Source: Escherichia coli | Lineage (GTDB): Bacteria > Pseudomonadota > Gammaproteobacteria > Enterobacterales > Enterobacteriaceae | Length of the DNA: 64,000 bases | Assembly (NCBI RefSeq): GCF_024502345.1 | Contig: NZ_JALDNN010000001.1 | Strand: one strand, 5' to 3' | Shown here: piece by piece, positions 1 to 54,695 of the stretch | Layout of the letters: every line of letters begins with the position of its first letter | Numbering within the stretch: the first letter of the stretch is position 1 | Translations under genes and position numbers: made by a program | Notes under the pieces: model-generated | What the model saw: the letters and a program-made list of their open reading frames with translations, nothing else | Told to the model about the DNA's origin: nothing | Databases searched by the model: none

Positions 1-3000
1 CTGATGCTGCTCATGCTGTTCAGAGAGCACATCCAGCAGCATGGCGTGCGTTTCACGCACGTTCACGTTGAGGCGCACGCTGTTCACCTGACCAAACGAT
101 ACGTTCTGCAACCCCTGGTTGAGCATACGGATACGGTTCTGCTCGCGCTGAATGGTTTTGCGAATGATGTTCGCCACGCTGCGGGAACTGATCGCCAGTT
201 TCTGTTCACGGGAGGTTAATTCTTCGGTCAGACGGCTAAGTTCGATCTCCATCTGTTCGATAGCTTCCACCGGATCATCGGTACGAATAATATCCTGACG
301 AATACGTTCACGCAGATGCTGATAAACCGCCACGAAGAACTGAATTTTACGCTCCGGACGTTTCGGATCTTCCGACATGCGCAGCACGTCGCGCAGATGT
401 TCGTTATCCGCCACCGCCAGACGCAGCGCACCTAACGCCTTATCCGACATGGAACGCAAATCATCAGCGGAGAGATAAGCCAGCTCACGACGGTGTAAGC
501 GGCGCTCAACGCCGTTATCTTTCACCATGCGCATCACCGCACACCAGCCCGCTTTGGCGGTCACTACCTGCTCGCGCATCTCAAAGTAATCACGCTCCAG
601 CTTTCGCAGTTTGCGGGTCAGGTTGTCCATCTCCGCTTCGCAGAAGGTAAGCGCTTTTTCCAGTTGATTGCGGCGTGAACGGTTATTGCTCAGTTGCGCA
701 TGCAGCTCGTCACGGCGAATACGCGCCCGCTCTTCTGCCCCGCTATCAGCACGCACGCCGATATCCTGCAATTCACGTTGCAGATCGTTGAGTAGCTCTT
801 TTTTGGTGTCGTACGAACTTTTCAGCGAAGCCAGCACCTGGTTGTACTGACTCAACTGCGCTGCGTGACCGCGCAACGCTTCGCGAGCGCGGGTACGCTC
901 CGCTTCCGCCTGTTCCAGACGTTCACGCAGTTTTTCGTTGAGATCGTTGTTACCGCTAAGCATTTCTGCCGAGTCAGAATAGCTAAAGTGCGCACGACGC
1001 TGCACCACTTCCGTCAGGGCAAACGCCTGCTGACGGGCATCGCGCTGCATCTGCTGAGAGTACGCGTAATCTTCTTTTAACTGTTCGAACTGTTCCGGGT
1101 CGCTCTGCAATACCGAAACGATCGGTTCCAGTTTCGCCAGTTGATTGCCAAACTGCTGAACAAAACGCGCGGCTTCCTGGGCTTCATCCAGACGTTCGCG
1201 GATTTCATCGACGCGATCCGCCAGGCTGTCATCAGCCAACAGGTTGAGACGCGGCAGAATGCGGTTCAGCGCCGTAACGCCTTCTTTCGCCTGCTCAAAC
1301 TGAATACGCTGCTGCTGGTTATCATTTTCATGATTACTCAACGCCCGCTCCAGTTCGACGCGACGGCTGTTCAGTTGACGGATTTCTGCTTCCGGGTCAG
1401 ACTCAAACGCCACCGCCAGATGACTGCCGATAAAGCGGCTGAACGCCTGATGCAGACGCTGGGTTTTCTGTACATCAAAGGAGAGCGTGGCGAAGCGTTC
1501 GGAAAGCACTTCACGCTCGGCATGGAGGCTTTCAATACGGCTTTCACGCGCAGCACGACCAAACAGCGGCACTTCCGGGAAACGTGAATAACGCCACTGA
1601 CGATCGGCGATTTTCACCACTACCGCTTTTTCCAGCTCATCAACGCTGAACACGCTATCATCGAATGACTGCGGATCCCCTTCGATCAAATAGAGATCTT
1701 CCGGGCAATCGGTCAAGCCTTCCAGGTGTTCGGTTACCTGTGACAGATCTGGCACCACGATGGCGTGGCGTGACGGACCATACAGAGCCGAGAAGTATGG
1801 CGCATCTTCCAGGCTAACGTCGTCATAAATTTCTGACAGCAGCACACCACCAAAACGCTCTGCCAGCGCGTTCAGACGCTGATCTTCAGAGCCGCCAGGC
1901 TGGCTTAAACGTTCGATCTCTTCATCGACGGCGTTTTTGCGCGCGCCTACTTCATCGCGTTCAACAATCGCCTCGCGCTCACGCTCCAGCAACTGTTGCA
2001 GATATTCAGTGACGTCCTGGCTGGAGGAGAACTCTTCGCCGCACTGTTCACTCAACTGGTTGAGACTGTTTTGCGCTGCCAGCCAAACCGGTGCACGCTG
2101 CATCAAACTCTGAATGCGAGACTGCAGCTGTTCCTGCTCCTGGCGCAGTGCCATACGCTCTTCGCGGGCGTTAGACACGCTATCGGAAAGAGAGGCAATA
2201 CGCGCTTCCAGCTCCTGATGCAGGGCTTCCAGTTCATCGATATCAAAATTCTTGCCCTGACGTTTGCAGAAATCTGCCAGCAGACGCTCAGCTTCTTGCT
2301 GCTCGCGCAGACGCTGTTCCAGTTCACTTAAGCGCATCCGCAACGGTTGAACCTGCTCTGCCAGGTGACGCTGATCGACCCCTTCGCGCAGCAGTTCGCG
2401 GGCGACATCCCACGCCTCGTTACGCGCCAGCGGGCCGTTGATTGCCACCACCAGCTGATAAGCCTGCTCAAACTGGCTGTGCGCGGTTTGCGCCATGCTC
2501 ATTTTCTGCTCAAGAGAGAGCATTTTTTCAGTCGCTTCCTGCTCTTTCGCCTGGAAGGTTTCCAGCCATTCGGCGGCGCTGTCGGCGGTTAAGTCCGGCA
2601 GATGGCACAGTTCTTTGGCACGATTAAGTGCAGCAATCGCCTGGTTATACTGGATCGCGCGCGTTTGCTGGACGTCCAGCGCCTGCTGGTAGTCAGCAAG
2701 CTGGCTTTTCAGCTCGTCCACTTCCAGTTCGGCAGCTTCCGCACGAGCCTCATTCTCTTCCTGGCGTTCGATGGCTTCTGCCACCACTTCGTTTTGCTCT
2801 TCCAGACGGATCTGCAGCTCATCGAGATCCGCTTCGTAGCGTTCGATCTTCTCCTGCTGACGCAATGCGGTTTGCACCAGGTTCAGGTGATCGCTGGCCG
2901 CCTGATAATCCGCTTCCAGATCGCCTTCGGCACCGTTGTGCTCTGCCAGCTCACGCGCCATATCGACGTGTTTGTACTGCTCAGCCGCCAGTTGCTGACG

Positions 3001-3894
3001 CGAAGTGTGTAGCTCGCGACGAAACTCCAGGGCTTTGTCGAGATGGACACGGCGCTCGTTGGCGTGACGCATGTAGTCCGCCGCCACGTAGTTGGTGGCT
3101 TCGCTAATCAGATGCTTAAACAGGTCGCGGTCCGACTGGGTGACACGAATCGCTTCCAGCGTCATGCGGTTTTCACGCAGCGCCGCTTCCATGTCCTGGA
3201 ACGCTTTACGCACGCCGCTGTTTTCCGGCAACAGGTAGTCGCGCAGAGAACGGGTAATGGCACTGGAGATCCCGCCATACAGCGAAGCTTCGATCAGACG
3301 ATAGAATTTGCTACGGTCAGATGCGGAGCGCAGACGACGCGCGATGATGCCCAGATCGAACATCAGCGAGTGGTAATCGGTAATGGAGTTGAACTGTTTA
3401 AACTGCACGCCTTCCATCGCCTCGAGCTTGTCTTTCAGCTCGTTAAGCGGCAGCACGCGCGCCTGGCGTTCGTTCAGAGTTTCGGTCACCAGCTGTGTCG
3501 GCTGCACCGACATCGGCAGTCCCTGAATGGCAAATGGTTTGATATCCACTTTACGATCGCGTCCGGCAACCTGTTGCAGACGCACACCGACCACCACGCG
3601 CTGGTGGCGCGAGTTAATGGTGTCGAGCATCGAATAACAGACACCCGCTTTCAGCTTACCGTGCAGACCTTTATCGCGCGAACCGCTGGTGGCCCCGGCT
3701 TCCGTAGTGTTACGGAAATGCAGCAGGGTCAGGTCGGGGATCAGCGCCGTAACGAACGCCGCCATGGTGGTGGATTTACCCGCCCCGTTACCGCCAGAAA
3801 GCGTCGTGACCAGCTCGTCAAGGTCAAAAGTTCGGGCAAAAAAGCCGTTCCAGTTAATCAGCGTCAGTGAGCGAAATTTACCGCGTTCAATCAT
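1..3894 (-). CDS. mukB: Chromosome partition protein MukB (SMC-like), partial: about 190 C-terminal codons lie beyond the window start
   Basis: Minus-strand frame open to the window edge, so absent from the ORF track. N-terminus MIERGKF read codon by codon at 3894..3874; peptide [24 protein letters not shown] read at positions 1..72. Start ATG overlaps the mukE stop by 1 nt (TAATG). Confidence 0.95.
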
Positions 3895-4598
3895 TATTCT
3901 TCCTCTCCGCTATCTGGCTGATTCTCTTCGGTTTCATCGTTGAGTTGCAGATGATTTTCAATCGGCATTGCTTCGCCATCACGAATCAGGCGACGCTGTG
4001 CTTCACGGGGATCGTCGCCAGCACGCACATCGGCTCCGAAGCGGAACACCGATTCGGTAATGCGGAACTTGCTGCTGTCGTGGCCCATAAACCACACCAT
4101 GCCTAAACGACGCAGACGGTTGAGCGAAGAACGTACTTTTTCCTGCAACTTCTGACGGTCAACGTCTGAACCGGTTGAACGGTTGTTCACCAGTTTCAGC
4201 AGTTTCGCTTCATCAGCCAGGGTGAGCAGTTCGTCGTACAGTTCCTGTTGAGTAAAAATCCCCTCATTCGCCAGCCGTTCCGGGCTGAGATAGAGATAAC
4301 AGAGGATTTTCCCGACCATCATATCCAGTTCCGACAAGACGGAACGAGGGATCAGCGTGGTGGAACGTGGGCGTAAATAGAAGAACCCTTCTGGTGCGCG
4401 AATAAGCTCAACGTTATAACGCGCGTAAAACTCTTCCAGATATTCCTGAAAATCCATCAGGAATGCATGATTATCCAGTTCGTCGAGGCCAATATGGCGG
4501 CCTGAACGTAAGGCGCTGTCCAGCGCCGGAAATAACGGATTCGCCAGCGCCTGCGCCAGCTTAACCGGCATCACTTGTTCAATATTTGTCGATGACAT
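3894..4598 (-). CDS. mukE: Chromosome partition protein MukE
   Basis: ORF track 3894..4625 (243 aa). Start placed at the ATG at 4598 (MSSTNIEQ..., 234 aa) to match the known protein; the in-frame ATG at 4625 is an alternative. Overlaps the mukF 3' end by 20 nt. Confidence 0.9.
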
Positions 4599-5901
4599 GC
4601 GCCTGTACCTTGGCTCCGTAATCATTAATCGGCTGCCATTTCGCTGGCAGTCCGGTGAAATCTGCTTGCGCTACGCCAAGACGTACCGCCTGATCAATAA
4701 CAATGCGCGCAACGTCAAAGTGACGTGCACGCGGATACTGTGACAAATATTCGCGTACCACCAGACCAAGATCCAGCGGCACTTGTCTGGTTTTGTACAC
4801 GGCAAGTTGTTCTTCGATGATCGCCGCCAGCTGTTCGCGGATCTCGTTAAACTCTTCGTATTCCAAATCTGGCGGAAGTTCCCCAGTCACTTCTTCATCG
4901 CGCAGTGCCATCTCTTCGTCACGCATATCCAGCAGACGATCGGCATTGGCATAAGTTAGCGCCCACGGCTCATCAAAATAGGTTTGTACCGACTGACGTA
5001 ACCGCTGAGCAAAGACGCGGTTTTTATCCATATCGATCGCGGTACGAATAAATTTATGTACGTGGCGGTCGTAGCCAATCCACAAATCGATGGATTGCTG
5101 GCCCCAACTGATAATACGGTCGAGTTTGCTCTGCAGATCGAACACCAGACGATCGACAAAATGCAGATCGTCATGAGTCATCGTCGCATCCTGAATGCGC
5201 AACAGATTAGCCTGCAATTTGTCGCCTGCCGCTTCCAGCGTATCCTGCAATTCACGCAGCGTTCCGGAAGTTTCCGAAAGCAACAATTCACAGCTGGAAA
5301 TCGCCGCCCGCCAGTCTTTGTTCAGCAACTGGGCGATATCGTCCTTCACCTGCTGCTGCTGTTCGTCCATCAGACGTTGCGTCAGGTCGATACTGTCGAA
5401 AATTTCTGCTACCGAATATTTCAGTGGCGCATAGACATTACGGTGCCAGTGAAATTCATCACCGCCCTCTTCGGCGGCATCTGCTGCGCGTTTGAGCTCA
5501 CCCGCCACAATCGACAACTGCATAGAAAGGCGCAGCGTAGAAAACTCGCGCTGACGGATGTAATAGTCAGTAATGCCGATGCCGAGCGGCGTCAGACGGT
5601 AAATAGCGTTACCTTCCGCCTGCTCGCTGGTAAAGCGGTTCAGCAGACGTTGACGCACCATGTCGTTGATCGCGTTATTGGCGCGCACGCCGATGGTTTC
5701 GCTGGTTTGCTCAAACGCATCACTCACATGGCGGAATGCATCCACCAGCTCGCCTTCACTCATCTCACCATCCAGACGCTCGCCGTTCAGCGTGGCAACC
5801 GCCAGCAGAAAAGAGAGTCGGTCTACCGGCAGCGAGATGGAGAAGTCATTTTTTCTGGCCCAGGCAACCAGTTCGGGGACTGTCTGGGAAAATTCACTCA
5901 T
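4579..5901 (-). CDS. mukF: Chromosome partition protein MukF (kleisin)
   Basis: ORF track, 440 aa, [20 protein letters not shown]...; length matches MukF. 4-nt overlap with the cmoM stop. Confidence 0.95.
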
Positions 5902-10867: not shown

Positions 10868-11854
10868 CTAGTTGCCAGAAGCCAGCGAGGTTAGTTGCGC
10901 AAGCAGTTTCGCTGGTTCATCACCTGAAAGCTGTGCGTCAACGGGCAAATACCACCAATTTTCTTCTGCAAAGGCCCGGCATTTCACCGCATCTTTTTCA
11001 GTCATTACCAGCGTTTGCCCGGTGCTTACCAACGCGCTGACATCCGCATGGTTCAAAGACTGATGATCGGCCAGCGGTACACATTTTTCCGGTTGTACGC
11101 CGCACATCTTCAGCGTGGCAAAAAAGCGCGGCGGATGCCCAATCCCCGCCATCGCCACTACATGTTCAAGCTGAGCAACGTCACAACGCGTACCGGTACG
11201 TAAATTCACCGCCTGACCCGGCAGAAGATGCATGGGGATTTCACCGCTGCGGGGGACACCGCCGTTGACGATTACCGCATCAACCGACTTTAAGCGCCCC
11301 GCTCGCTCACGCATTGGCCCCGCCGGCAACCACCAGCCATTGCCAAAGCGACGCACACCATCAACAACGACAATTTCCACATCACGCGCCAGACGGTAAT
11401 GCTGTAAACCGTCGTCGGTTACGATGATCTGCACATCAGGGTGTTGCGCCAGAATGGCTTTTACCGCATCAGAACGCACGGGAGAAACCGCAACGGGCGC
11501 GCCAGTGCGTTGATAAATCAACACAGGTTCATCACCCGCCTGTGCTGTAGTGGTATCTGCCGACAATAACAGCGGATAAGATTCAGCCTTACCACCATAT
11601 CCCCGCGATACGACCCCCACGCGAATACCGCGCTGTTGCAACTGTTCCACCAGCCAGACAACGACCGGGGTTTTTCCGTTGCCGCCTGCGGTGAGATTAC
11701 CAACCACGACAACCGGTACGGGGGCACGCCAGGCGCGCTTCAGTTTTAGTTTATAGCAAAGACGGATCGCGCCACTCACCAGGCCATACAACCAAGAGAG
11801 TGGCAGCAATAGCCGCCACAAAGGGGATTCACCAGACCAGATTTTTTCGATCAT
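10868..11854 (-). CDS. lpxK: Tetraacyldisaccharide 4'-kinase (lipid A biosynthesis)
   Basis: ORF track, 328 aa; P-loop [12 protein letters not shown]. Start overlaps the msbA stop by 4 nt. Confidence 0.95.
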
Positions 11855-13599
11855 TGGCCAAACTGCATTTTGTGAAGTTGCGCGTAAACGCCGCGGTGCT
11901 CAAGCAAATCGTTATGCGTACCGCGTTCCACAATGACACCATCCTCAACGACCACGATTTCGTCTGCCTTTTCAATGGTAGACAAGCGGTGGGCAATCAC
12001 CAGAGAGGTACGGTTTTTCTGCAACTCATCTAGTGCCGCCTGAATCGCACGTTCGGATTCGGTATCCAACGCCGAGGTAGCTTCGTCCAGAATCAGAATC
12101 GGGCTATCACGCAACAAGGCTCGAGCGATAGCAATACGCTGACGCTGACCGCCAGAGAGCAGCACGCCGTTTTCACCAATCACTGTATCGAGACCGTTAT
12201 CCATCTTATTGATGAAGTCCATGGCGTAGGCCATACGCGCCGCTTCTTCAATTTGCTCACGGCTGTACTGTTCAGTCCGTGCGTAAGCAATGTTGTTAGC
12301 AACCGTATCGTTAAACAGATGGACATTCTGCGACACCAGAGCAACCTGGTTACGTAACGACGCCAGAGTATACTCGCGCAGATCGTGACCATCCATCAGG
12401 ATTTCGCCTTCATCAATATCGTAAAAACGCGTGATCAGGCTGGCGATGGTTGATTTACCTGAACCAGAGCGTCCAACCAGAGCAACCGTCTTCCCTGCCG
12501 GAATTTTCAGGTTGATGTTACGCAAGGCGGGTACGTCACGTCCCGGATAAGTAAAGGTGACATTGCGGAATTCCACGTCGCCAGTCGCACGCTCGAGCAC
12601 GCGCTTACCTTCGTCTTTCTCCTGCTCACTGTCCAGAATGGTAAACAGCGTCTGACAAGCCGCCATACCGCGCTGGAACTGGGCGTTAACGTTGGTCAGC
12701 GATTTCAGCGGACGCATCAGTGCAATCATCGAAGAGAAAACAACGGTAATCGTACCGGCAGTCAGGCTATCCATGACACTTGGGAAGCTCGCCGCATACA
12801 GAACAAACGCCAGCGCCAAAGAGGCGATCAGCTGAATGATCGGATCAGAGATGGAAGAGGCTGAAACCATTTTCATCCCCTGAAGACGCATTCGGTTACT
12901 GACTTTATCGAAGCGTTTCGTTTCAACTTCCTGACCACCGAAAATCAATACTTCTTTATGGCCTTTCAGCATTTGTTCAGCGCTGGTGGTCACCTGCCCC
13001 ATGGTGTTCTGCATGTTTTTACTGATGTTGCGAAAACGCTTCGATACTACGCGAATCGCAATCGAAACAATCGGTGCCAGCACAATCAAAATGATCGACA
13101 ATTGCCAACTGTAATAGAACATCATGATGAACAGGCCGATGATCGACGCACCTTCACGCACAACAGTAATCAGTGCGCCGGAAGAGGAAGAAGCAACCTG
13201 TTCGGAATCGTAGGTGATACGTGACAACAGCGTACCCGTTGACTGTTTGTCAAAGAATGAAACCGGCATTCCCATCATGTGACCAAACAGGCGGCGACGC
13301 ATGGTCATTACCACCTTTCCTGATACCCAGGAGATACAGTAGCTGGAGACATAGCTGGTGATACCACGCAAAATCATCAGCCCGATCACCACCAGCGGCA
13401 TCCACACCAGCACGGAGCGATCTGTTTTACCAAAGCCATCATCAAGAAGTGGCTTAAGGAGCGATAACATGAAGGTATCGCTGGCTGCGTTGAGGATTAA
13501 CGCTACGCCCGCCACGATCAGACCCGCTTTAAAAGGCGCAATGGTTGGCCACAGTCGGCGGAATGTCTGCCACGTAGAGAGATCTTTGTCGTTATGCAT
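11851..13599 (-). CDS. msbA: Lipid A / LPS flippase ABC transporter MsbA
   Basis: ORF track, 582 aa; Walker [13 protein letters not shown] signature LSGGQRQR, Walker [10 protein letters not shown]. Confidence 0.95.
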
Positions 13600-13635
13600 T
13601 CAAAAAACCAGCATTTGTTGAAATAGCCGCATATT

Positions 13636-15900
13636 CTACCCGTTATCCACTGGCACGCCAAACCACTGATGATACCAACGAGGTAAAATTTGCTCCCTGA
13701 GGCTGCTAATCCGCCAGCCTTGCGCTGAAAAATCGACCGTTACTTGCCCCTGATGAGGAGTATCAAGCCACGTATAACCCTGTTGTTGATAGCGATGCTT
13801 AACTTTGTTAGAGGGCAGTCGCCATGCGTTATAGCGCGATGCCGATGCGAGTGCCACTTTTCCATTCACTCGCTGAATTAATGGCAACGATGATGAGGTA
13901 TTACTGCCATGGTGAGGTACCTGAAGCAATGTTGCCTGCACTTGCTGCCAGTAACGGCTTAGCATCTTTTGTTCAGCTGGGGCTTCAATATCACCGGTTA
14001 GAAGAATGCTATTCGTCCCGTCATCAACCTTAACCACACAGGAATGGTTATTTCCTTTATCGTTGCTACCTTGTAAAGGCCAGTGCGCGCTGAAACGCAA
14101 TCCTTGCCATTGCCACGCTTCGCCACGCACACAGGGCTGATGATGTTCCCAGTTTAACGGACTTCTGATCCATAACATCGGCCATATATGCAATATTGAA
14201 TCCAGCCCTCCCCGGTGATCCAGATGTTCATGGCTCAGAATAACGCCTTCCGGTTCAAGATTATGCCAGTGGAGCCAGGGGATAATCAGTTGTTGCCCAC
14301 TATCCCCTTCGGGCCAGGCCAGTCCCGTGTCATAGAGAATCGCTTTGCCGTTTCTGGCTATCACCATTGCCAGCCCTTGCCCGACATCAAGCATGTACAC
14401 TTGCCACTCGTCAGGTCGAGGTTTTTGCCACAGCGGCCAGCACATCAGCAAGCCTACAGCCACACACATTGCTGGCAACGTTCGCCAGGCGTTTAATCGC
14501 CATACCACCAGTAAGAACCATGGGGAAAATGATAGCCATTGCCAACGTTCAGCAATGTTGATCCACCCTTCTGGCAAACTCTTTAACCCCCAGAAAAGTA
14601 AAGCCAAAGACCGGTCGGCAAGAAACCATAACCCTTGCTCCAGGATTAACGGCCCGCTTAAATGCACAACCATCGCGGCGAGGATCAACGGAACCGTGAT
14701 AAATGTCACCAAGGGAATTGCTAATAGATTTGCAATAAACGAGGTCAGACTAATGCCATGAAATATGACGATTTGCACGGGCATAAGCAGAAGTGTGATT
14801 CCCAGTTGCAGATGGATGAGGGAAACAACTGCACGCAATACCGGCGGCAGTTGCCACTCAGGACAGGGAAACCACTGATACCAAAATATCAATGCCGCGA
14901 CCGCAGCGGCAGAGAGCCATAAACTTTGCGAGAGAATGGCAACAGGATCCATCAGCAAAATTGCCGCCAGACAACATATCCATACATCCCAGCCACTCCA
15001 CTGTCGCCCACTTAACTTAAGCATTCCCCACGTAGCAAGCGCCACAACGGTACGCAATGCAGGAGGTTGCATTCCCGTCAGCCAGGCATAAAAAGCAGCA
15101 CAGCAGATTCCGCCAATTAATGGCATTTGCCAGTGGATCCAGCGCCCAGGCAGAAAAATTTGTCCACTGCGAATGAGTCCGGCAGCCAGCAACGCCGCAA
15201 AAGCGATGTGCAATCCCGATATCGCCATTAAATGCGCCGTTCCAGTATCACGCATGATATTTTTGATTTCTTTAGGGACGGATAACCGTTCCCCCATACC
15301 TAAACCAAGAATAACCGCATTCCACGGATAGGGTTGCAGCGTTGTTTGTAGTGACGCCAGATACTGTGCACGCAGGCTACAATTCGGTTCAATAACACTT
15401 GCCTGCAGAAAGCGGCCGGTGAGCGGCTGATGCTGGGCAATGGCATAACGCTGGCTATCAAAGCCGCCATCATTAAGTTGACCATGAACGGCACGAACTT
15501 TGAGTTTCATTGACCACAGTTGTCCGGCACAAACCGCTTGCGGAAGATATTCGCCATACAGCACAAGGCCTGGCGCAGGGAATATACGTCGACCTTGTAG
15601 ATAAGTAATTTGACCGTAATGAGTGGTCATGCCGTCAGTAGCAGTGATCTCAACAATTGCATCCTGCGTCGCGCCAGTTAAGGTTTCTCCTGCCCACAAA
15701 ATTTGCTTTGCTGATAATATGCCCCAAACGAAAAACAGCAACGTCAGCGCGATATAACGGACGGTTTTAACAGGGATAAATGCCAGTACGCAGGCGAAGA
15801 GAGTCAGAAACGCAAGGGTTAATGTCCCAGGCAATTGGGGCAAAATCAGCAACGGAAAAATTCCGCAAATTATGCATACGCCGACTGTCGTTATTTTCAT
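13636..15900 (-). CDS. ycaI: ComEC/Rec2-family inner-membrane protein YcaI with metallo-beta-lactamase domain
   Basis: ORF track 13636..15978 (780 aa). Start moved to the ATG at 15900 (MKITTVG..., 754 aa). HxHxDH motif (SHEHLDHRGG) seen near the C-terminus. Confidence 0.85.
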   Translation of the reverse strand: MKITTVGVCIICGIFPLLILPQLPGTLTLAFLTLFACVLAFIPVKTVRYIALTLLFFVWGILSAKQILWAGETLTGATQDAIVEITATDGMTTHYGQITYLQGRRIFPAPGLVLYGEYLPQAVCAGQLWSMKLKVRAVHGQLNDGGFDSQRYAIAQHQPLTGRFLQASVIEPNCSLRAQYLASLQTTLQPYPWNAVILGLGMGERLSVPKEIKNIMRDTGTAHLMAISGLHIAFAALLAAGLIRSGQIFLPGRWIHWQMPLIGGICCAAFYAWLTGMQPPALRTVVALATWGMLKLSGRQWSGWDVWICCLAAILLMDPVAILSQSLWLSAAAVAALIFWYQWFPCPEWQLPPVLRAVVSLIHLQLGITLLLMPVQIVIFHGISLTSFIANLLAIPLVTFITVPLILAAMVVHLSGPLILEQGLWFLADRSLALLFWGLKSLPEGWINIAERWQWLSFSPWFLLVVWRLNAWRTLPAMCVAVGLLMCWPLWQKPRPDEWQVYMLDVGQGLAMVIARNGKAILYDTGLAWPEGDSGQQLIIPWLHWHNLEPEGVILSHEHLDHRGGLDSILHIWPMLWIRSPLNWEHHQPCVRGEAWQWQGLRFSAHWPLQGSNDKGNNHSCVVKVDDGTNSILLTGDIEAPAEQKMLSRYWQQVQATLLQVPHHGSNTSSSLPLIQRVNGKVALASASRYNAWRLPSNKVKHRYQQQGYTWLDTPHQGQVTVDFSAQGWRISSLREQILPRWYHQWFGVPVDNG

Positions 15901-16054
15901 GCACCCCTCCCTGTTTATGGAAAGTGTGCAACTTTGTTGAGCGGTTGTCTGGTGGGAATTTTGCGTTCCCCGAGGCACATTCAGAAGAATTTAACGAAAG
16001 GGTGAAAACTGCTCAAAACTCTGCGAGGCAGCTTCCAGTTCCTGATTAGAGAAA

Positions 16055-16080
16055 TGAAAAAAGCACCCGACAGGTGCTTT
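16055..16080 (-). terminator. Rho-independent terminator downstream of ihfB
   Basis: Minus-strand hairpin AGCACC-tgtcgg-GTGCT followed by TTTTTTCATTT. Confidence 0.7.
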
Positions 16081-16106
16081 TCTCGCGTTCAAGTTTGAGT
16101 AAAAAC

Positions 16107-16391
16107 TTAACCGTAAATATTGGCGCGATCGCGCAGTTCTTTACCAGGTTTAAAGTGAGGAACGTATTTTCCTTCCAGTTCTACTTTATCGCCAGTCTTC
16201 GGATTACGTCCGGTACGTGGTGCGCGGTAGTGCAAAGAGAAACTGCCGAAACCGCGGATTTCAATACGCTCGCCCTGCGCAAGAGTCGAGGCCATATGCT
16301 CCAGCATCTCTTTTACTGCATCTTCAACCGTCTTGGCGGGAATGTGCGATTGCTGGGTGGCAAGTCTTTCTATCAATTCTGACTTGGTCAT
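16107..16391 (-). CDS. ihfB: Integration host factor beta subunit
   Basis: ORF track, 94 aa, [26 protein letters not shown].... Confidence 0.95.
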
Positions 16392-16445
16392 GATTCCTCC
16401 GGTTCCTTAAAGGCAAATTAAGCGGCTGCTGTTGCTGCATTGATT

Positions 16446-16467
16446 AAGGGCGGCCGTAGCCGCCCTT
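16446..16467 (-). other. Stable stem-loop downstream of rpsA, without a T-run
   Basis: Perfect 9-bp stem AAGGGCGGC-cgta-GCCGCCCTT between rpsA and ihfB; no U-tract on the minus strand, so possibly a processing site or partial terminator. Confidence 0.4.
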
Positions 16468-16550
16468 AGTGCTTGATTACAGGACGAAACCTGCAATCTG
16501 TCAAGTAAACTCAACAAACTTCGGAATAAAAATCCCGAAGAGTCAGAGAA

Positions 16551-18224
16551 TTACTCGCCTTTAGCTGCTTTGAAAGCTTCAGCCATTGCGTTGTTGGAGA
16601 AGTTTGCATCTTCCTGTTTGTTAACAGTTGCGATTGCATCTTTCTCGTCAGCTTCGTCTTTCGCACGAACAGACAGGCTGATTGCGCGGTTTTTACGATC
16701 AACGCCGGTGAATTTAGCTTCAACTTCGTCGCCAACGCTCAGAACCAGGGTAGCGTCTTCAACGCGGTCACGGGATGCTTCAGAAGCACGCAGGTAACCT
16801 TCAACGCCGTCAGCCAGTTCTACGGTTGCGCCTTTAGCGTCAACTGCAGTTACTTTACCGGTTACGATAGCGCCTTTCTTGTTCAGAGCAACCCAGTTGT
16901 TGAACGGATCTTCTGCGAGCTGTTTAACGCCCAGGGAGATACGTTCACGTTCTGCGTCAACCTGCAGAACAACTGCAGCGATTTCGTCACCTTTTTTGTA
17001 TTCACGAACTGCTTCTTCGCCTGCAACGTTCCAGGAGATGTCAGACAGGTGAACCAGGCCGTCGATGCCGCCGTCCAGGCCGATGAAGATACCGAAGTCA
17101 GTGATAGACTTGATTTTACCTTCAACACGGTCGCCCTTGTTGTGGGTTTCCGCGAATTGCTGCCACGGGTTAGCTTTGCACTGTTTCAGACCCAGGGAGA
17201 TACGACGACGTTCTTCGTCGATATCCAGAACCATAACTTCCACTACATCGCCAACGTTAACAACTTTGGACGGGTGGATGTTTTTGTTGGTCCAATCCAT
17301 TTCGGAAACGTGTACCAGGCCTTCAACGCCTTCTTCGATTTCAACGAAGCAGCCGTAGTCGGTCAGGTTGGTCACGCGACCAGTCAGTTTGGTACCTTCC
17401 GGATAACGTTTAGCGATAGCTACCCACGGATCTTCGCCCAGCTGTTTCAGGCCCAGGGATACACGGGTACGTTCGCGGTCGAACTTCAGCACTTTAACAG
17501 TGATTTCGTCGCCCACGTTGACGATTTCGCTCGGATGCTTAACGCGTTTCCAGGCCATGTCAGTGATGTGCAGCAGGCCGTCAACGCCGCCCAGATCAAC
17601 GAATGCACCGTAGTCAGTGAGGTTCTTAACGATACCTTTAACTTCCATGCCTTCCTGCAGGTTTTCCAGCAGCTGATCGCGCTCTGCGCTGTTTTCGGAT
17701 TCGATAACGGCACGACGAGAAACAACAACGTTGTTGCGCTTCTGATCCAGCTTGATTACTTTAAATTCAAGCTCTTTGCCTTCCAGGTGCAGAGTGTCAC
17801 GCACCGGACGAACGTCTACCAGAGAACCTGGCAGGAACGCACGAATACCGTTCAGCTCAACAGTGAAGCCGCCCTTAACTTTGCCGTTGATAACACCGGT
17901 AACAGTTTCAGCATCTTCGTAAGCTTTTTCCAGCGTGATCCAGGCTTCGTGACGTTTAGCTTTCTCACGGGACAGCAGAGTTTCACCGAAGCCGTCTTCT
18001 ACTGCGTCCAGAGCAACGTCAACTTCGTCACCTACCTGGATTTCCAGCTCGCCCTGGGCGTTTTTGAACTGCTCAGCCGGGATGGCGGACTCAGATTTCA
18101 GACCAGCGTCAACCAGTACTACGTCTTTGTCGATAGCAACAACAACGCCACGAACGATAGAACCCGGGCGGGTTTCGATTTCTTTTAAGGACTCTTCAAA
18201 GAGTTGAGCAAAAGATTCAGTCAT
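16551..18224 (-). CDS. rpsA: 30S ribosomal protein S1
   Basis: ORF track, 557 aa, [26 protein letters not shown]...; six S1 repeats. Confidence 0.97.
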
Positions 18225-39259: not shown

Positions 39260-39429
39260 AATGGCTCACTCAAGCTTGCTCACGATTGATTCCAGTAACA
39301 AACCGTATTGTGTAATTATTTCTATAGCAGCTCGCTATATAGGCTTGTATACATCGAATAATTTGAAAATCAAAGAGATAGGTAGATTTTCACTCGAAAG
39401 TAGTATTACGTGTAAGTGAGGAGTAATTA

Positions 39430-39443
39430 TTGTTCGGTATCAA
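39430..39443 (-). promoter_or_regulatory. FNR binding site of the dmsABC promoter
   Basis: Minus-strand TTGATaccgAACAA matches the FNR consensus with one mismatched half-site position, about 170-185 bp upstream of the dmsA start codon. Confidence 0.65.
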
Positions 39444-39451
39444 AGGGAGAC

Positions 39452-39478
39452 AAAAAAAGCGCCCGTAGGCGCTTTTTA
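39452..39478 (-). terminator. Rho-independent terminator downstream of serS
   Basis: Minus-strand AAGCGCC-tacg-GGCGCTT followed by seven T. Confidence 0.75.
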
Positions 39479-39497
39479 GATTCAGAAAAATTGGGTA

Positions 39498-54476: not shown

Positions 54477-54564
54477 GGTGAGGTGTCCGAGTGGCTGAAG
54501 GAGCACGCCTGGAAAGTGTGTATACGGCAACGTATCGGGGGTTCGAATCCCCCCCTCACCGCCA
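54477..54564 (+). tRNA. serW: tRNA-Ser (anticodon GGA)
   Basis: 88 nt GGTGAGGTGTCCGAGTGGCTGAAGGAGCACGCCTGGAAAGTGTG...GGTTCGAATCCCCCCCTCACCGCCA. Acceptor stem GGTGAGG/CCTCACC, anticodon loop CTGGAAA, long variable arm, encoded CCA. Confidence 0.93.
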
Positions 54565-54606: not shown

Positions 54607-54615
54607 GCATTTTAT

Positions 54616-54695
54616 CTGCCTGTACGGCAGTGAACATGGTGGGCGGGTGGAGTATGTTACCAGTGAATTTCTAAGCTGCCTGTACGGCAGTGAAC
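54616..54695 (+). repeat. Pair of identical 20-bp direct repeats, each a small hairpin, downstream of serW
   Basis: CTGCCTGTACGGCAGTGAAC at 54616..54635 and again at 54676..54695, exactly 60 bp start to start. Each contains the dyad CTGCC-tgtac-GGCAG. Confidence 0.8.

Follow-up and report, generated by a model that had tools for sequence, protein, structure and literature searches.

YcaI, an intact ComEC/Rec2 orthologue encoded immediately upstream of msbA-lpxK in Escherichia coli

Characterised ComEC proteins and the architecture of YcaI

Within the ComEC family, Mn2+ dependence and 5' exo/endonuclease activity have been shown for Moorella proteins alone (PMC12455585, PMC8579336), and motif II of the characterised nucleases reads H-x-D-x-D-H (PMC8579336, PMC12455585). 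Mutation of the residues equivalent to the YcaI active-site set described below abolishes both nuclease activity and transformation in other ComEC proteins (PMC12455585; PMC8579336). [quoted passage not shown] Closer to E. coli, Haemophilus influenzae Rec2 and other γ-proteobacterial ComEC/Rec2 proteins (TIGR00361; 9vc9, 9vcb, 9vcf) have the same three-domain architecture and length as YcaI, although E. coli, unlike the γ-proteobacterial Rec2 hosts compared, has been shown to be transformable only with artificial help. Sxy expression has been reported to bring about hofQ-dependent uptake of DNA in this species, in an Sxy/lambda-Red assay that covered hofQ alone (PMC3330819), and we found no published experiments on YcaI nuclease or transport activity in the literature. 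The gene and its domains, as located in the 64 kb stretch of E. coli DNA analysed here (the window), are as follows.

13636..15900, minus strand: ycaI CDS, ComEC/Rec2 orthologue, 754 aa plus TAG stop (ORF list and sequence)
15906..15911, minus strand: Shine-Dalgarno GGGAGG, 5 nt before the ycaI ATG (sequence)
15430..15822, minus strand: N-terminal region, DUF4131, predicted OB fold, aa 27-157
14500..15300, minus strand: Competence (channel) domain PF03772, aa 201-467 (Pfam, E=4.3e-53)
13843..14388, minus strand: metallo-beta-lactamase (nuclease) domain PF00753 Lactamase_B, aa 505-686 (Pfam, E=1.4e-23)

The minus-strand ORF that starts with an ATG at 15900 and ends at 13636 encodes the 754 aa of YcaI, and its boundaries are those of the RefSeq ycaI CDS in the nearest genome. 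This ATG is favoured over an upstream GTG at 15978 because of the Shine-Dalgarno sequence that precedes it and because the ribosome-binding block ACAGGGAGG is conserved across five genera. YcaI scores above the cut-offs of both relevant family models, matching NF008580 over aa 1-754 (NCBIfam; 1314 bits, cut-off 969) and, as a full-length match, the ComEC/Rec2 equivalog TIGR00361 (1110 bits, cut-off 190), and it can be aligned over its full length with its nearest solved relatives, which are ComEC/Rec2 structures (E about 1e-75 to 1e-78). YcaI is a full-length, intact ComEC/Rec2 orthologue (the first-pass annotation of this DNA had recognised a ComEC/Rec2 homologue), and ycaI is a known, already annotated E. 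coli gene of known family.

The domain search that the same annotation had proposed as a check recovered both the Competence and the Lactamase_B domains. The N-terminal match to Pfam DUF4131 is weaker (20.7 bits, under the cut-off of 31.6), and the AlphaFold2 model of YcaI (pLDDT 92.7 and pTM 0.89 overall) places beta strands at residues 78-171 with pLDDT around 90, followed by a helical region at residues 176-491 with pLDDT above 90. All the invariant residues of the channel domain (H223, S228, G229, H231, Y271, R283 and N391) are kept in YcaI. [quoted passage not shown] The Moorella/Neomoorella and Bacillus subtilis nuclease domains (9ic4, 30bt) superpose on YcaI to this extent with an identity of only ~27%. 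The next-best structural matches (Pce/CbpE, RNase J and CPSF-73) share the H-x-H-x-D-H motif II and the overall fold; YcaI differs from them in having no beta-CASP domain and in that its MBL domain is joined to a membrane channel and a predicted OB fold.

[quoted passage not shown]

The sequence motifs of the MBL superfamily map onto YcaI as listed below.

14386..14388, minus strand: motif I Asp, D505 in LDVGQG (D in 146 of 149 representatives; invariant in alignment A3)
14215..14232, minus strand: motif II HEHLDH, H557 E H559 L D561 H562 (sequence and alignment columns)
14050..14052, minus strand: N617, family-invariant Asn in N-x-x-S-C (invariant in A3)
13990..13992, minus strand: motif IV Asp, D637 in TGDIE (D in 142 of 149 representatives)
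13903..13917, minus strand: motif V PHHGS, H663, H664 and S666 (invariant in A3)

HEHLDH, encoded by CAT GAA CAT CTG GAT CAC at 14232-14215 (minus strand, aa 557-562), occupies the motif II position of Lactamase_B in alignments with both 149 diverse and 120 enterobacterial homologues, and hence is not a chance match. Motifs I, IV and V are likewise found in YcaI, whereas the motif III His of canonical MBL hydrolases is replaced by Asn, as in all ComEC proteins (described in PMC8579336). From the alignments we infer that this Asn is N617. The nearby H619 (in GNNHSC) was also considered as the motif III ligand, but its column is variable (H in 49, D in 42 and other residues among the representatives; R in 64 and H in 41 among the enterobacteria), so that it is probably not a ligand. 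In terms of the Moorella-type enzymes, YcaI has equivalents of H598, D602, H603, D700, H725 and S728; in particular, D637 corresponds to D700, a metal ligand in M. glycerini ComEC, and motif V to H725 and S728 of that protein (PMC12455585).

Residues D505, H557, D561, H562, N617, D637, H663, H664 and S666 vary little or not at all across the 149 diverse representatives and throughout the enterobacterial clusters that are not truncated. The alignments thus support a nuclease domain that is not degenerate, as the first-pass annotation had proposed; loss of metal-binding residues on full alignment, the outcome it had named as counting against this view, was not seen. Since all its ligands are kept, YcaI is not a case of the S. 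pneumoniae or H. pylori kind, and nuclease activity can reasonably be predicted for it.

The sole active-site departure from the family is H559. That annotation had correctly noticed an HxHxDH sequence here, but took it as the yardstick of an intact site, whereas the ComEC consensus is HxDxDH, found in 116 of 149 ComEC representatives (5 are gapped at this column). The equivalent residue is D600 in the Moorella-type proteins, and Asp is also found in the γ-proteobacterial ComEC/Rec2 relatives. Judging from its distribution, H559 is a substitution typical of the Enterobacterales and not a plain retention of the family motif: His occupies the position in 21 of the 35 nearest 50%-identity clusters, against 5 of the next 114, in which Asp is dominant. 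Named His-bearing clusters comprise Cedecea, Mangrovibacter, Erwinia, Rouxiella, Tatumella, Providencia and Utexia.

This distribution, together with the presence of Asp in the characterised Mn2+-dependent ComEC domains and of His in the Zn2+ enzyme Pce (PMC8579336), is what would be expected if the exchange reflected a functional shift of the nuclease domain, either to another metal (Zn2+ or Fe2+ for Mn2+) or to an altered substrate. Such a shift seems unlikely to us, given that both His and Asp serve as competent metal ligands, that the remaining active-site residues of YcaI are all unaltered, and that motif III is still Asn as in other ComEC proteins. With the nuclease domain taken as intact, the His at 559 nevertheless means that the activity or metal preference of YcaI might differ from those of the characterised Mn2+-dependent enzymes, and comparing H559 with D559 would be an inexpensive way to learn what determines the choice of metal in ComEC nucleases.

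The deposited sequences of 9vc9, 9vcb and 9vcf read SHGANAH at motif II, and a natural degeneracy of this kind would have made the E. coli motif remarkable. Their nearest natural relatives, however, all read SH-x-DNDH, and the double D-to-A exchange is the standard nuclease-dead 'DADA' mutant (PMC8579336), so that the deposited sequences are most likely engineered.

Gene order, the msbA junction and the upstream region

The genes around ycaI are arranged in the order ihfB-ycaI-msbA-lpxK-ycaQ-kdsB, all on the minus strand, and the order comEC-msbA-lpxK is common to E. coli and a Pasteurellaceae genome.

11851..13599, minus strand: msbA, next gene downstream of ycaI, same orientation (ORF list, RefSeq annotation)
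13600..13635, minus strand: ycaI-msbA spacer, 36 nt, without terminator
13633..13661, minus strand: promoter-like element for msbA in the ycaI 3' end (-35 TTGGCG at 13661-13656, 17-nt spacer, -10 TAGAAT at 13638-13633)
16022..16037, plus strand: candidate CRP-S-type site TGCGA-GGCAGC-TTCCA, TGCGA half closest to the promoter, 122 nt upstream of ycaI
16056..16084, minus strand: ihfB intrinsic terminator, 13-bp stem then T run, conserved in alignment A2

The first-pass annotation had placed a real gene at exactly the right position and had given the gap to msbA correctly as 36 bp (13635-13600), but had described ycaI as lying downstream of msbA-lpxK. This is true in plus-strand coordinates alone: ycaI lies immediately upstream, and msbA transcripts reading into ycaI, which it had suggested looking for, are impossible since ycaI precedes msbA. 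Read-through can only proceed from ycaI into msbA. The spacer is 36 nt long in six of the seven sequences compared; no terminator-like site was found in it, and no stable RNA structure, its fold being no more stable than that of shuffled sequences (z = +1.09). With no terminator between the genes, transcription from ycaI can run on into msbA-lpxK, and ycaI-msbA-lpxK-ycaQ has been described as an operon (PMC10328246). On its other side, ycaI is insulated from ihfB transcription by the ihfB intrinsic terminator.

The promoter-like element at the 3' end of ycaI is the only sigma-70-like match in 11500-16600, and the TAG of its -10 hexamer serves as the stop codon of ycaI. Neither hexamer varies among seven sequences from five genera, and it is here that the locus has its two longest stretches without any variation. 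Hence, the essential msbA gene probably has its own promoter within the last ycaI codons, and changes or insertions in the last ~45 nt of ycaI may disturb its expression. We advance with reserve, as a joint proposition, that His at 559 could mark a clade-specific change in the metal use or catalysis of a nuclease for DNA uptake, in bacteria without overt competence, and that, separately, the last codons and stop of ycaI may double as a deeply conserved promoter for msbA-lpxK. A short ORF of 10 codons within the spacer (MRLFQQMLVF, 13632-13600) is probably not real, because its start lies upstream of the transcription start expected for the embedded promoter, which would be close to 13626 (+/-3), and because its stop is lost in locus L006.

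Upstream of ycaI, a site of CRP-S type would liken the gene to members of the H. influenzae competence regulon (PMC1635313). The palindromic CRP-S consensus TGCGA-N6-TCGCA is uninformative in the window (39 matches with up to 2 mismatches, against 46.5 expected), and the asymmetric E. coli-type motif (PMC6728893) was used instead. Its core, TGCGA-N6-TTCCA, has a single exact match in the window (0.26 expected). The same exact core occurs once per locus, at the equivalent position, in all five E. coli loci and in loci L011 and L013 (alignment A2), and is lacking in Klebsiella. The site is of the asymmetric E. coli type, whereas that of H. influenzae is palindromic, and the latter consensus is unmatched upstream of ycaI. 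We regard 16022-16037 as a candidate Sxy/CRP control element for ycaI, whose Sxy-dependent transcription would then be predicted to begin at roughly 15968-15981.

Selection on ycaI and the role of its product

Full-length ycaI is present in 5423 of 5426 complete E. coli genomes. For the whole gene dN/dS is 0.14-0.24, and for the MBL domain 0.13-0.22 (binomial p against neutrality 1e-16 and 5e-8, respectively), and omega values of 0.09-0.29 across the three domains indicate purifying selection in each. The MBL domain is the best conserved (73% identity, against 56% and 63% in the other two), and the length of 754 aa is held across genera despite identities of 60-73%. This constraint is moderate, since dN/dS is about ten times that of the neighbouring msbA.

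These data bear on whether ycaI might be a functionless relic, its ORF kept only for the signals of msbA-lpxK (the 3'-end promoter and operon transcription). Such a reading would fit the fact that conservation at the DNA level is strongest over the last ~45 nt of ycaI and the spacer, synonymous sites included, the operon description cited above, and the tolerance of disruption in rare strains, such as 90-3040, in which a prophage is inserted in ycaI. It is nonetheless highly improbable: the constraint at the DNA level spans just ~80 nt, whereas selection acts on all three domains, length and intactness are maintained as described, and the catalytic residues are invariant throughout the Enterobacterales. 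Moreover, a kan cassette in ycaI is viable (PMC8151780), so that msbA can be expressed without an intact ycaI.

As a whole, the locus is in all likelihood best explained as an intact E. coli ComEC/Rec2 orthologue with a weak, CRP-S-governed promoter and with transcription continuing into msbA-lpxK. YcaI would reside in the inner membrane and combine a periplasmic OB fold with a multi-helix channel for single-stranded DNA and a periplasmic nuclease of MBL fold. By analogy with the ComEC proteins that have been characterised, incoming duplex DNA would have its 5'-leading strand degraded by the nuclease while the complementary strand passes through the channel. The gene would be translated from its own ribosome-binding site and most likely has a weak, activator-dependent promoter under the CRP-S site (cAMP-CRP plus Sxy), which would leave it largely silent under laboratory conditions; msbA-lpxK would be reached by transcription starting at ycaI and, in addition, from the probable embedded msbA promoter. 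A gene that is largely silent yet Sxy-inducible might explain why YcaI is intact in a species with no obvious natural competence. YcaI can thus be regarded as an intact, catalytically plausible component of inner-membrane DNA uptake that is under selection, a result that is of small consequence beyond housekeeping but that fits the published view of the Sxy regulon as a working but barely expressed uptake machinery.

An active YcaI need not have been selected for genetic transformation. With Sxy induced, natural transformation of E. coli is undetectable unless lambda Red is supplied (PMC3330819), and a nutritional view of competence in the γ-Proteobacteria has been argued (PMC1635313), so that the selected role might be the import and degradation of DNA as a nutrient, with catabolism as the reason for keeping the ComEC machinery, or some other envelope function. 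In one study, a ycaI nonsense mutant was transformed less well by chemical and ultrasound methods and reached a slightly lower OD in stationary phase (PMC12844161), although these phenotypes are small and may include polar effects on the essential downstream msbA; such polarity should be looked for in any ycaI knock-out. We consider this role possible but somewhat doubtful; it differs from a role in transformation in the selected benefit and not in molecular mechanism, and the sequence does not tell the two roles apart. Spontaneous plasmid transformation on plates proceeds without ycaI (PMC6135910; PMC3306417).

Gene boundaries, neighbourhood and family assignment

The ycaI gene is a single long open reading frame that fills positions 13636-15900 of the minus strand, from an ATG at 15900 to a TAG at 13638-13636 (754 aa). 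An alternative GTG start at 15978 would yield a 780-aa version, but the ATG is preferred because a Shine-Dalgarno sequence (GGGAGG) located 5 nt before it is kept across genera in the alignment, because the sequence further 5' lacks codon-like conservation across genera, and because RefSeq carries the identical 2265-nt CDS, named ycaI, with the product 'ComEC family protein'. In this region the window shares 99.9% identity with strain 48, 99.3% with O157:H7 strains and 98.1% with K-12. All the neighbouring genes lie on the minus strand as well: aroA, ycaL, cmk, rpsA and ihfB, followed by a terminator and ycaI, and then msbA, lpxK, ycaQ and kdsB. The elements flanking ycaI are the following:

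16084-16056, minus strand: ihfB intrinsic terminator, between ihfB and ycaI
13600-13635, minus strand: ycaI-msbA spacer, 36 nt
13599-11851, minus strand: msbA, the next gene after the spacer

The first-pass annotation gave the correct size for the 36-nt gap but placed ycaI downstream of msbA-lpxK. With the whole cluster on the minus strand, ycaI is instead upstream, and hence the proposed read-through of msbA transcripts into ycaI would run in the wrong direction. The linkage itself is old and common to a family that contains naturally competent species, since a Pasteurellaceae genome also presents the arrangement comEC-msbA-lpxK-(trm112-like)-kdsB, with dksA-pcnB-folK upstream. It is not universal, as one relative with 43% identity has other genes around it.

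Sequence analysis could hardly make the membership of YcaI in the ComEC/Rec2 family, as proposed in the first-pass annotation, more certain. NF008580 and TIGR00361 (ComEC_Rec2), both NCBIfam equivalogs, cover the protein end to end, far over their cut-offs, and a Pfam search identifies a Competence domain (aa 201-467, E=4.3e-53), a Lactamase_B domain (aa 505-686, E=1.4e-23) and a sub-threshold DUF4131 match (aa 27-157). The closest solved structures by sequence are the ComEC/Rec2 entries 9vc9, 9vcb and 9vcf (E ~1e-75 to 1e-78), followed by the Moorella/Neomoorella ComEC entries 30bt and 9ic4. AlphaFold2, given a 68-sequence alignment, models YcaI with high confidence (pLDDT 92.7, pTM 0.89), and a Foldseek search of the PDB with this model ranks first 9ic4, the crystal structure of a ComEC beta-lactamase-like domain (TM 0.80 on target, rmsd 2.7 A). 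The next matches are Pce/CbpE, RNase J and CPSF-73, the same structural neighbours that Stedman et al. reported for the experimental ComEC domain structure (PMC12455585). [quoted passage not shown] Only two points go slightly beyond annotation, both of them modest: motif II has a His-for-Asp swap that is typical of the Enterobacterales, and the stop codon of ycaI forms part of a deeply conserved, promoter-like element of msbA.

The nuclease active site and selection on YcaI

The loss of metal-binding residues was sought in a full alignment of 149 representatives of 50%-identity clusters, and the residues proved to be retained.

Conservation of YcaI active-site residues (representatives with the same residue, of 149)
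D505: 146
H557: 143
D561: 143
H562: 143
D637: 142
H663: 142
H664: 139

In the cleaner 68-sequence full-length alignment, D505, S556, H557, D561, H562, N617, S620, C621, G636, D637, H663, H664, G665 and S666 are strictly invariant. Among 120 enterobacterial 90%-identity clusters, D505, H557, H559, D561, H562, D637, H663, H664 and S666 are kept in every ungapped column, and N617 has a single exception (Leu in one cluster). H619, in GNNHSC, was considered as the motif III His and rejected, given that its column is variable and N617 is invariant instead. The equivalent positions in Moorella glycerini ComEC are H598, D600, D602, H603, D700, H725 and S728; substitution of the metal-coordinating residues abolishes nuclease activity and transformation in that protein, whereas S728A only lowers nuclease activity, and transformation still takes place (PMC12455585). 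Likewise, the D573/D575 'DADA' positions of Bacillus subtilis ComEC correspond to motif II positions of YcaI (PMC8579336).

The HEHLDH sequence is indeed present (aa 557-562, encoded at 14232-14215), but it had been presented as a retained HxHxDH motif, which the ComEC family normally lacks. The second position of motif II is Asp in 116 of the 149 representatives and His in 26, and the latter are concentrated among the nearest clusters (21/35, versus 5/114 of the remainder). The His-bearing clusters that carry a name are Cedecea, Mangrovibacter, Erwinia, Rouxiella, Tatumella, Providencia and Utexia; a Pasteurellaceae representative has HDDNDH. On this distribution, HEHLDH reads as a conservative ligand swap typical of the Enterobacterales and not as plain retention of a family motif. 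The solved Rec2 sequences 9vc9, 9vcb and 9vcf carry SHGANAH or SHSANAH at motif II. Since their nearest natural relatives all have SH-x-DNDH, the deposited proteins are most likely engineered, nuclease-dead double Asp-to-Ala constructs and not natural degenerates.

The gene is found in 5425 of 5426 complete E. coli genomes, at a coverage of at least 80% in 5423; four of some 5430 matches in this collection fall on records classed as plasmids. The exact 2265-nt gene occurs in 38 of 40 evenly sampled records. Two exceptions were seen. In strain Z1322HEC0005, ycaI (501-2831 of locus L004) has an in-frame 66-nt tandem duplication that adds 22 aa to the channel domain after approximately residue 427, and its annotation still gives an intact protein of 776 aa. 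In the other, strain 90-3040, a prophage insertion cuts ycaI after some 408 codons: the truncated gene (3962-5185 of locus L005) abuts phage-like DNA (1-3961) encoding a Com-family regulator, a DNA cytosine methyltransferase and DUF826/DUF1378 proteins, and a match to the second half of ycaI lies elsewhere in the same record.

Nei-Gojobori comparison of the window, K-12, JJ1886 and strain 48 yields dN/dS values of 0.14-0.24 for ycaI (0.09-0.29 for individual domains) and of 0.01-0.05 for the neighbouring msbA. The synonymous excess is highly significant for the whole gene (p ~1e-16) and for the MBL domain (5e-8), and mean identity across the Enterobacteriaceae is highest in the MBL domain (73%), followed by the channel (63%) and the N-terminal region (56%). 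These comparisons indicate that YcaI is under moderate purifying selection and that its nuclease domain is not decaying, in agreement with the earlier suggestion that this domain is not degenerate. They also contradict the reading of ycaI as a relic kept for msbA. By the standard ComEC mechanism (PMC12455585; bioRxiv 10.64898/2026.04.23.720307), the predicted OB fold and the MBL nuclease would sit in the periplasm at the channel mouth, where the nuclease would degrade the 5'-leading strand while the other strand threads the channel. It is quite probable that YcaI is active in E. coli. The main alternative is selection of the same machinery for DNA catabolism and not for recombination, two options that sequence cannot tell apart.

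A CRP-S-type site upstream of ycaI

Within the 150 nt that separate the ihfB terminator from ycaI lies TGCGAGGCAGCTTCCA (16022-16037), which agrees exactly with the asymmetric E. coli CRP-S core 5'-TGCGA-N6-TTCCA-3' as defined by Sondberg et al. summarising Sinha et al. 2009 (PMC6728893). The match is unique on both strands of the 64-kb window, for which the chance expectation is 0.26. All five E. coli loci, an orthologue locus with 70% identity (L011) and Citrobacter rodentium each have exactly one match, at the corresponding position, and its near edge was measured at 120-122 nt before the ATG in the window, L011 and C. rodentium; the N6 spacer and flanks vary between these loci, and the exact motif is absent from Klebsiella and from a Cedecea-like locus. 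Cameron & Redfield (2006) describe CRP-S-like motifs in essentially all rec2-orthologue promoters of the Enterobacteriaceae (33 promoters, 38 sites), and the ycaI site is thus probably already in their supplementary list. The ycaI gene is inferred to be a member of the Sxy/CRP-S regulon, with 16022-16037 as the candidate site, which would account for its silence in ordinary culture. Induction of Sxy in E. coli leads to DNA uptake that is detectable with lambda Red and dependent on hofQ, the gene assayed there instead of ycaI (PMC3330819).

The ycaI-msbA junction and other elements of the window

No terminator-like element was found in the 36-nt ycaI-msbA spacer, and shuffled sequence folds at least as well as the region does (z = +1.09), so that transcripts initiated at ycaI should run on into msbA. 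The sole sigma-70-like match in 11500-16600 is TTGGCG-17 nt-TAGAAT (13661-13633, minus strand), whose -10 hexamer opens with the TAG stop of ycaI. Both hexamers and nearly the entire spacer between them are invariant in three E. coli strains, L011, C. rodentium, K. pneumoniae and the Cedecea-like genome, and the YcaI proteins of the compared genomes are only 52-73% identical to that of the window. A five-genus alignment of the whole ihfB-ycaI-msbA junction has 36% invariant columns. Its longest invariant runs, TGGTATCATCAGTGGTTTGGCG (13677-13656) and GGGTAGAATATGCGGCTATTTCA (13641-13619), both take in synonymous positions, and 13619-13677 (minus strand) together with the 36-nt spacer is the most conserved DNA of the locus across the five enterobacterial genera. 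Such conservation is strong evidence, by phylogenetic footprinting, that the end of ycaI harbours a promoter and leader for msbA, with a putative transcription start, and an element of this kind fits the viability of kan insertions in ycaI.

A ten-codon mini-ORF, MRLFQQMLVF (13600-13632, minus strand), occupies the spacer right up to the ATG of msbA. Klebsiella retains it with altered amino acids, but in the Cedecea-like genome its stop is lost, and it is probably not translated.

Elsewhere in the window, two 28-nt repeats, 60 nt apart, surround one 32-nt spacer at 54608-54695, directly after tRNA-Ser(GGA) (54477-54564). The repeats share an identical 20-nt core, and the second of them matches Rfam CRISPR-DR4; judged from the repeats, this looks like an orphan mini-CRISPR array. 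Finally, 39350-39484 (plus strand) is a full-length match to the STnc130 enterobacterial sRNA family (139 bits, gathering score 55).
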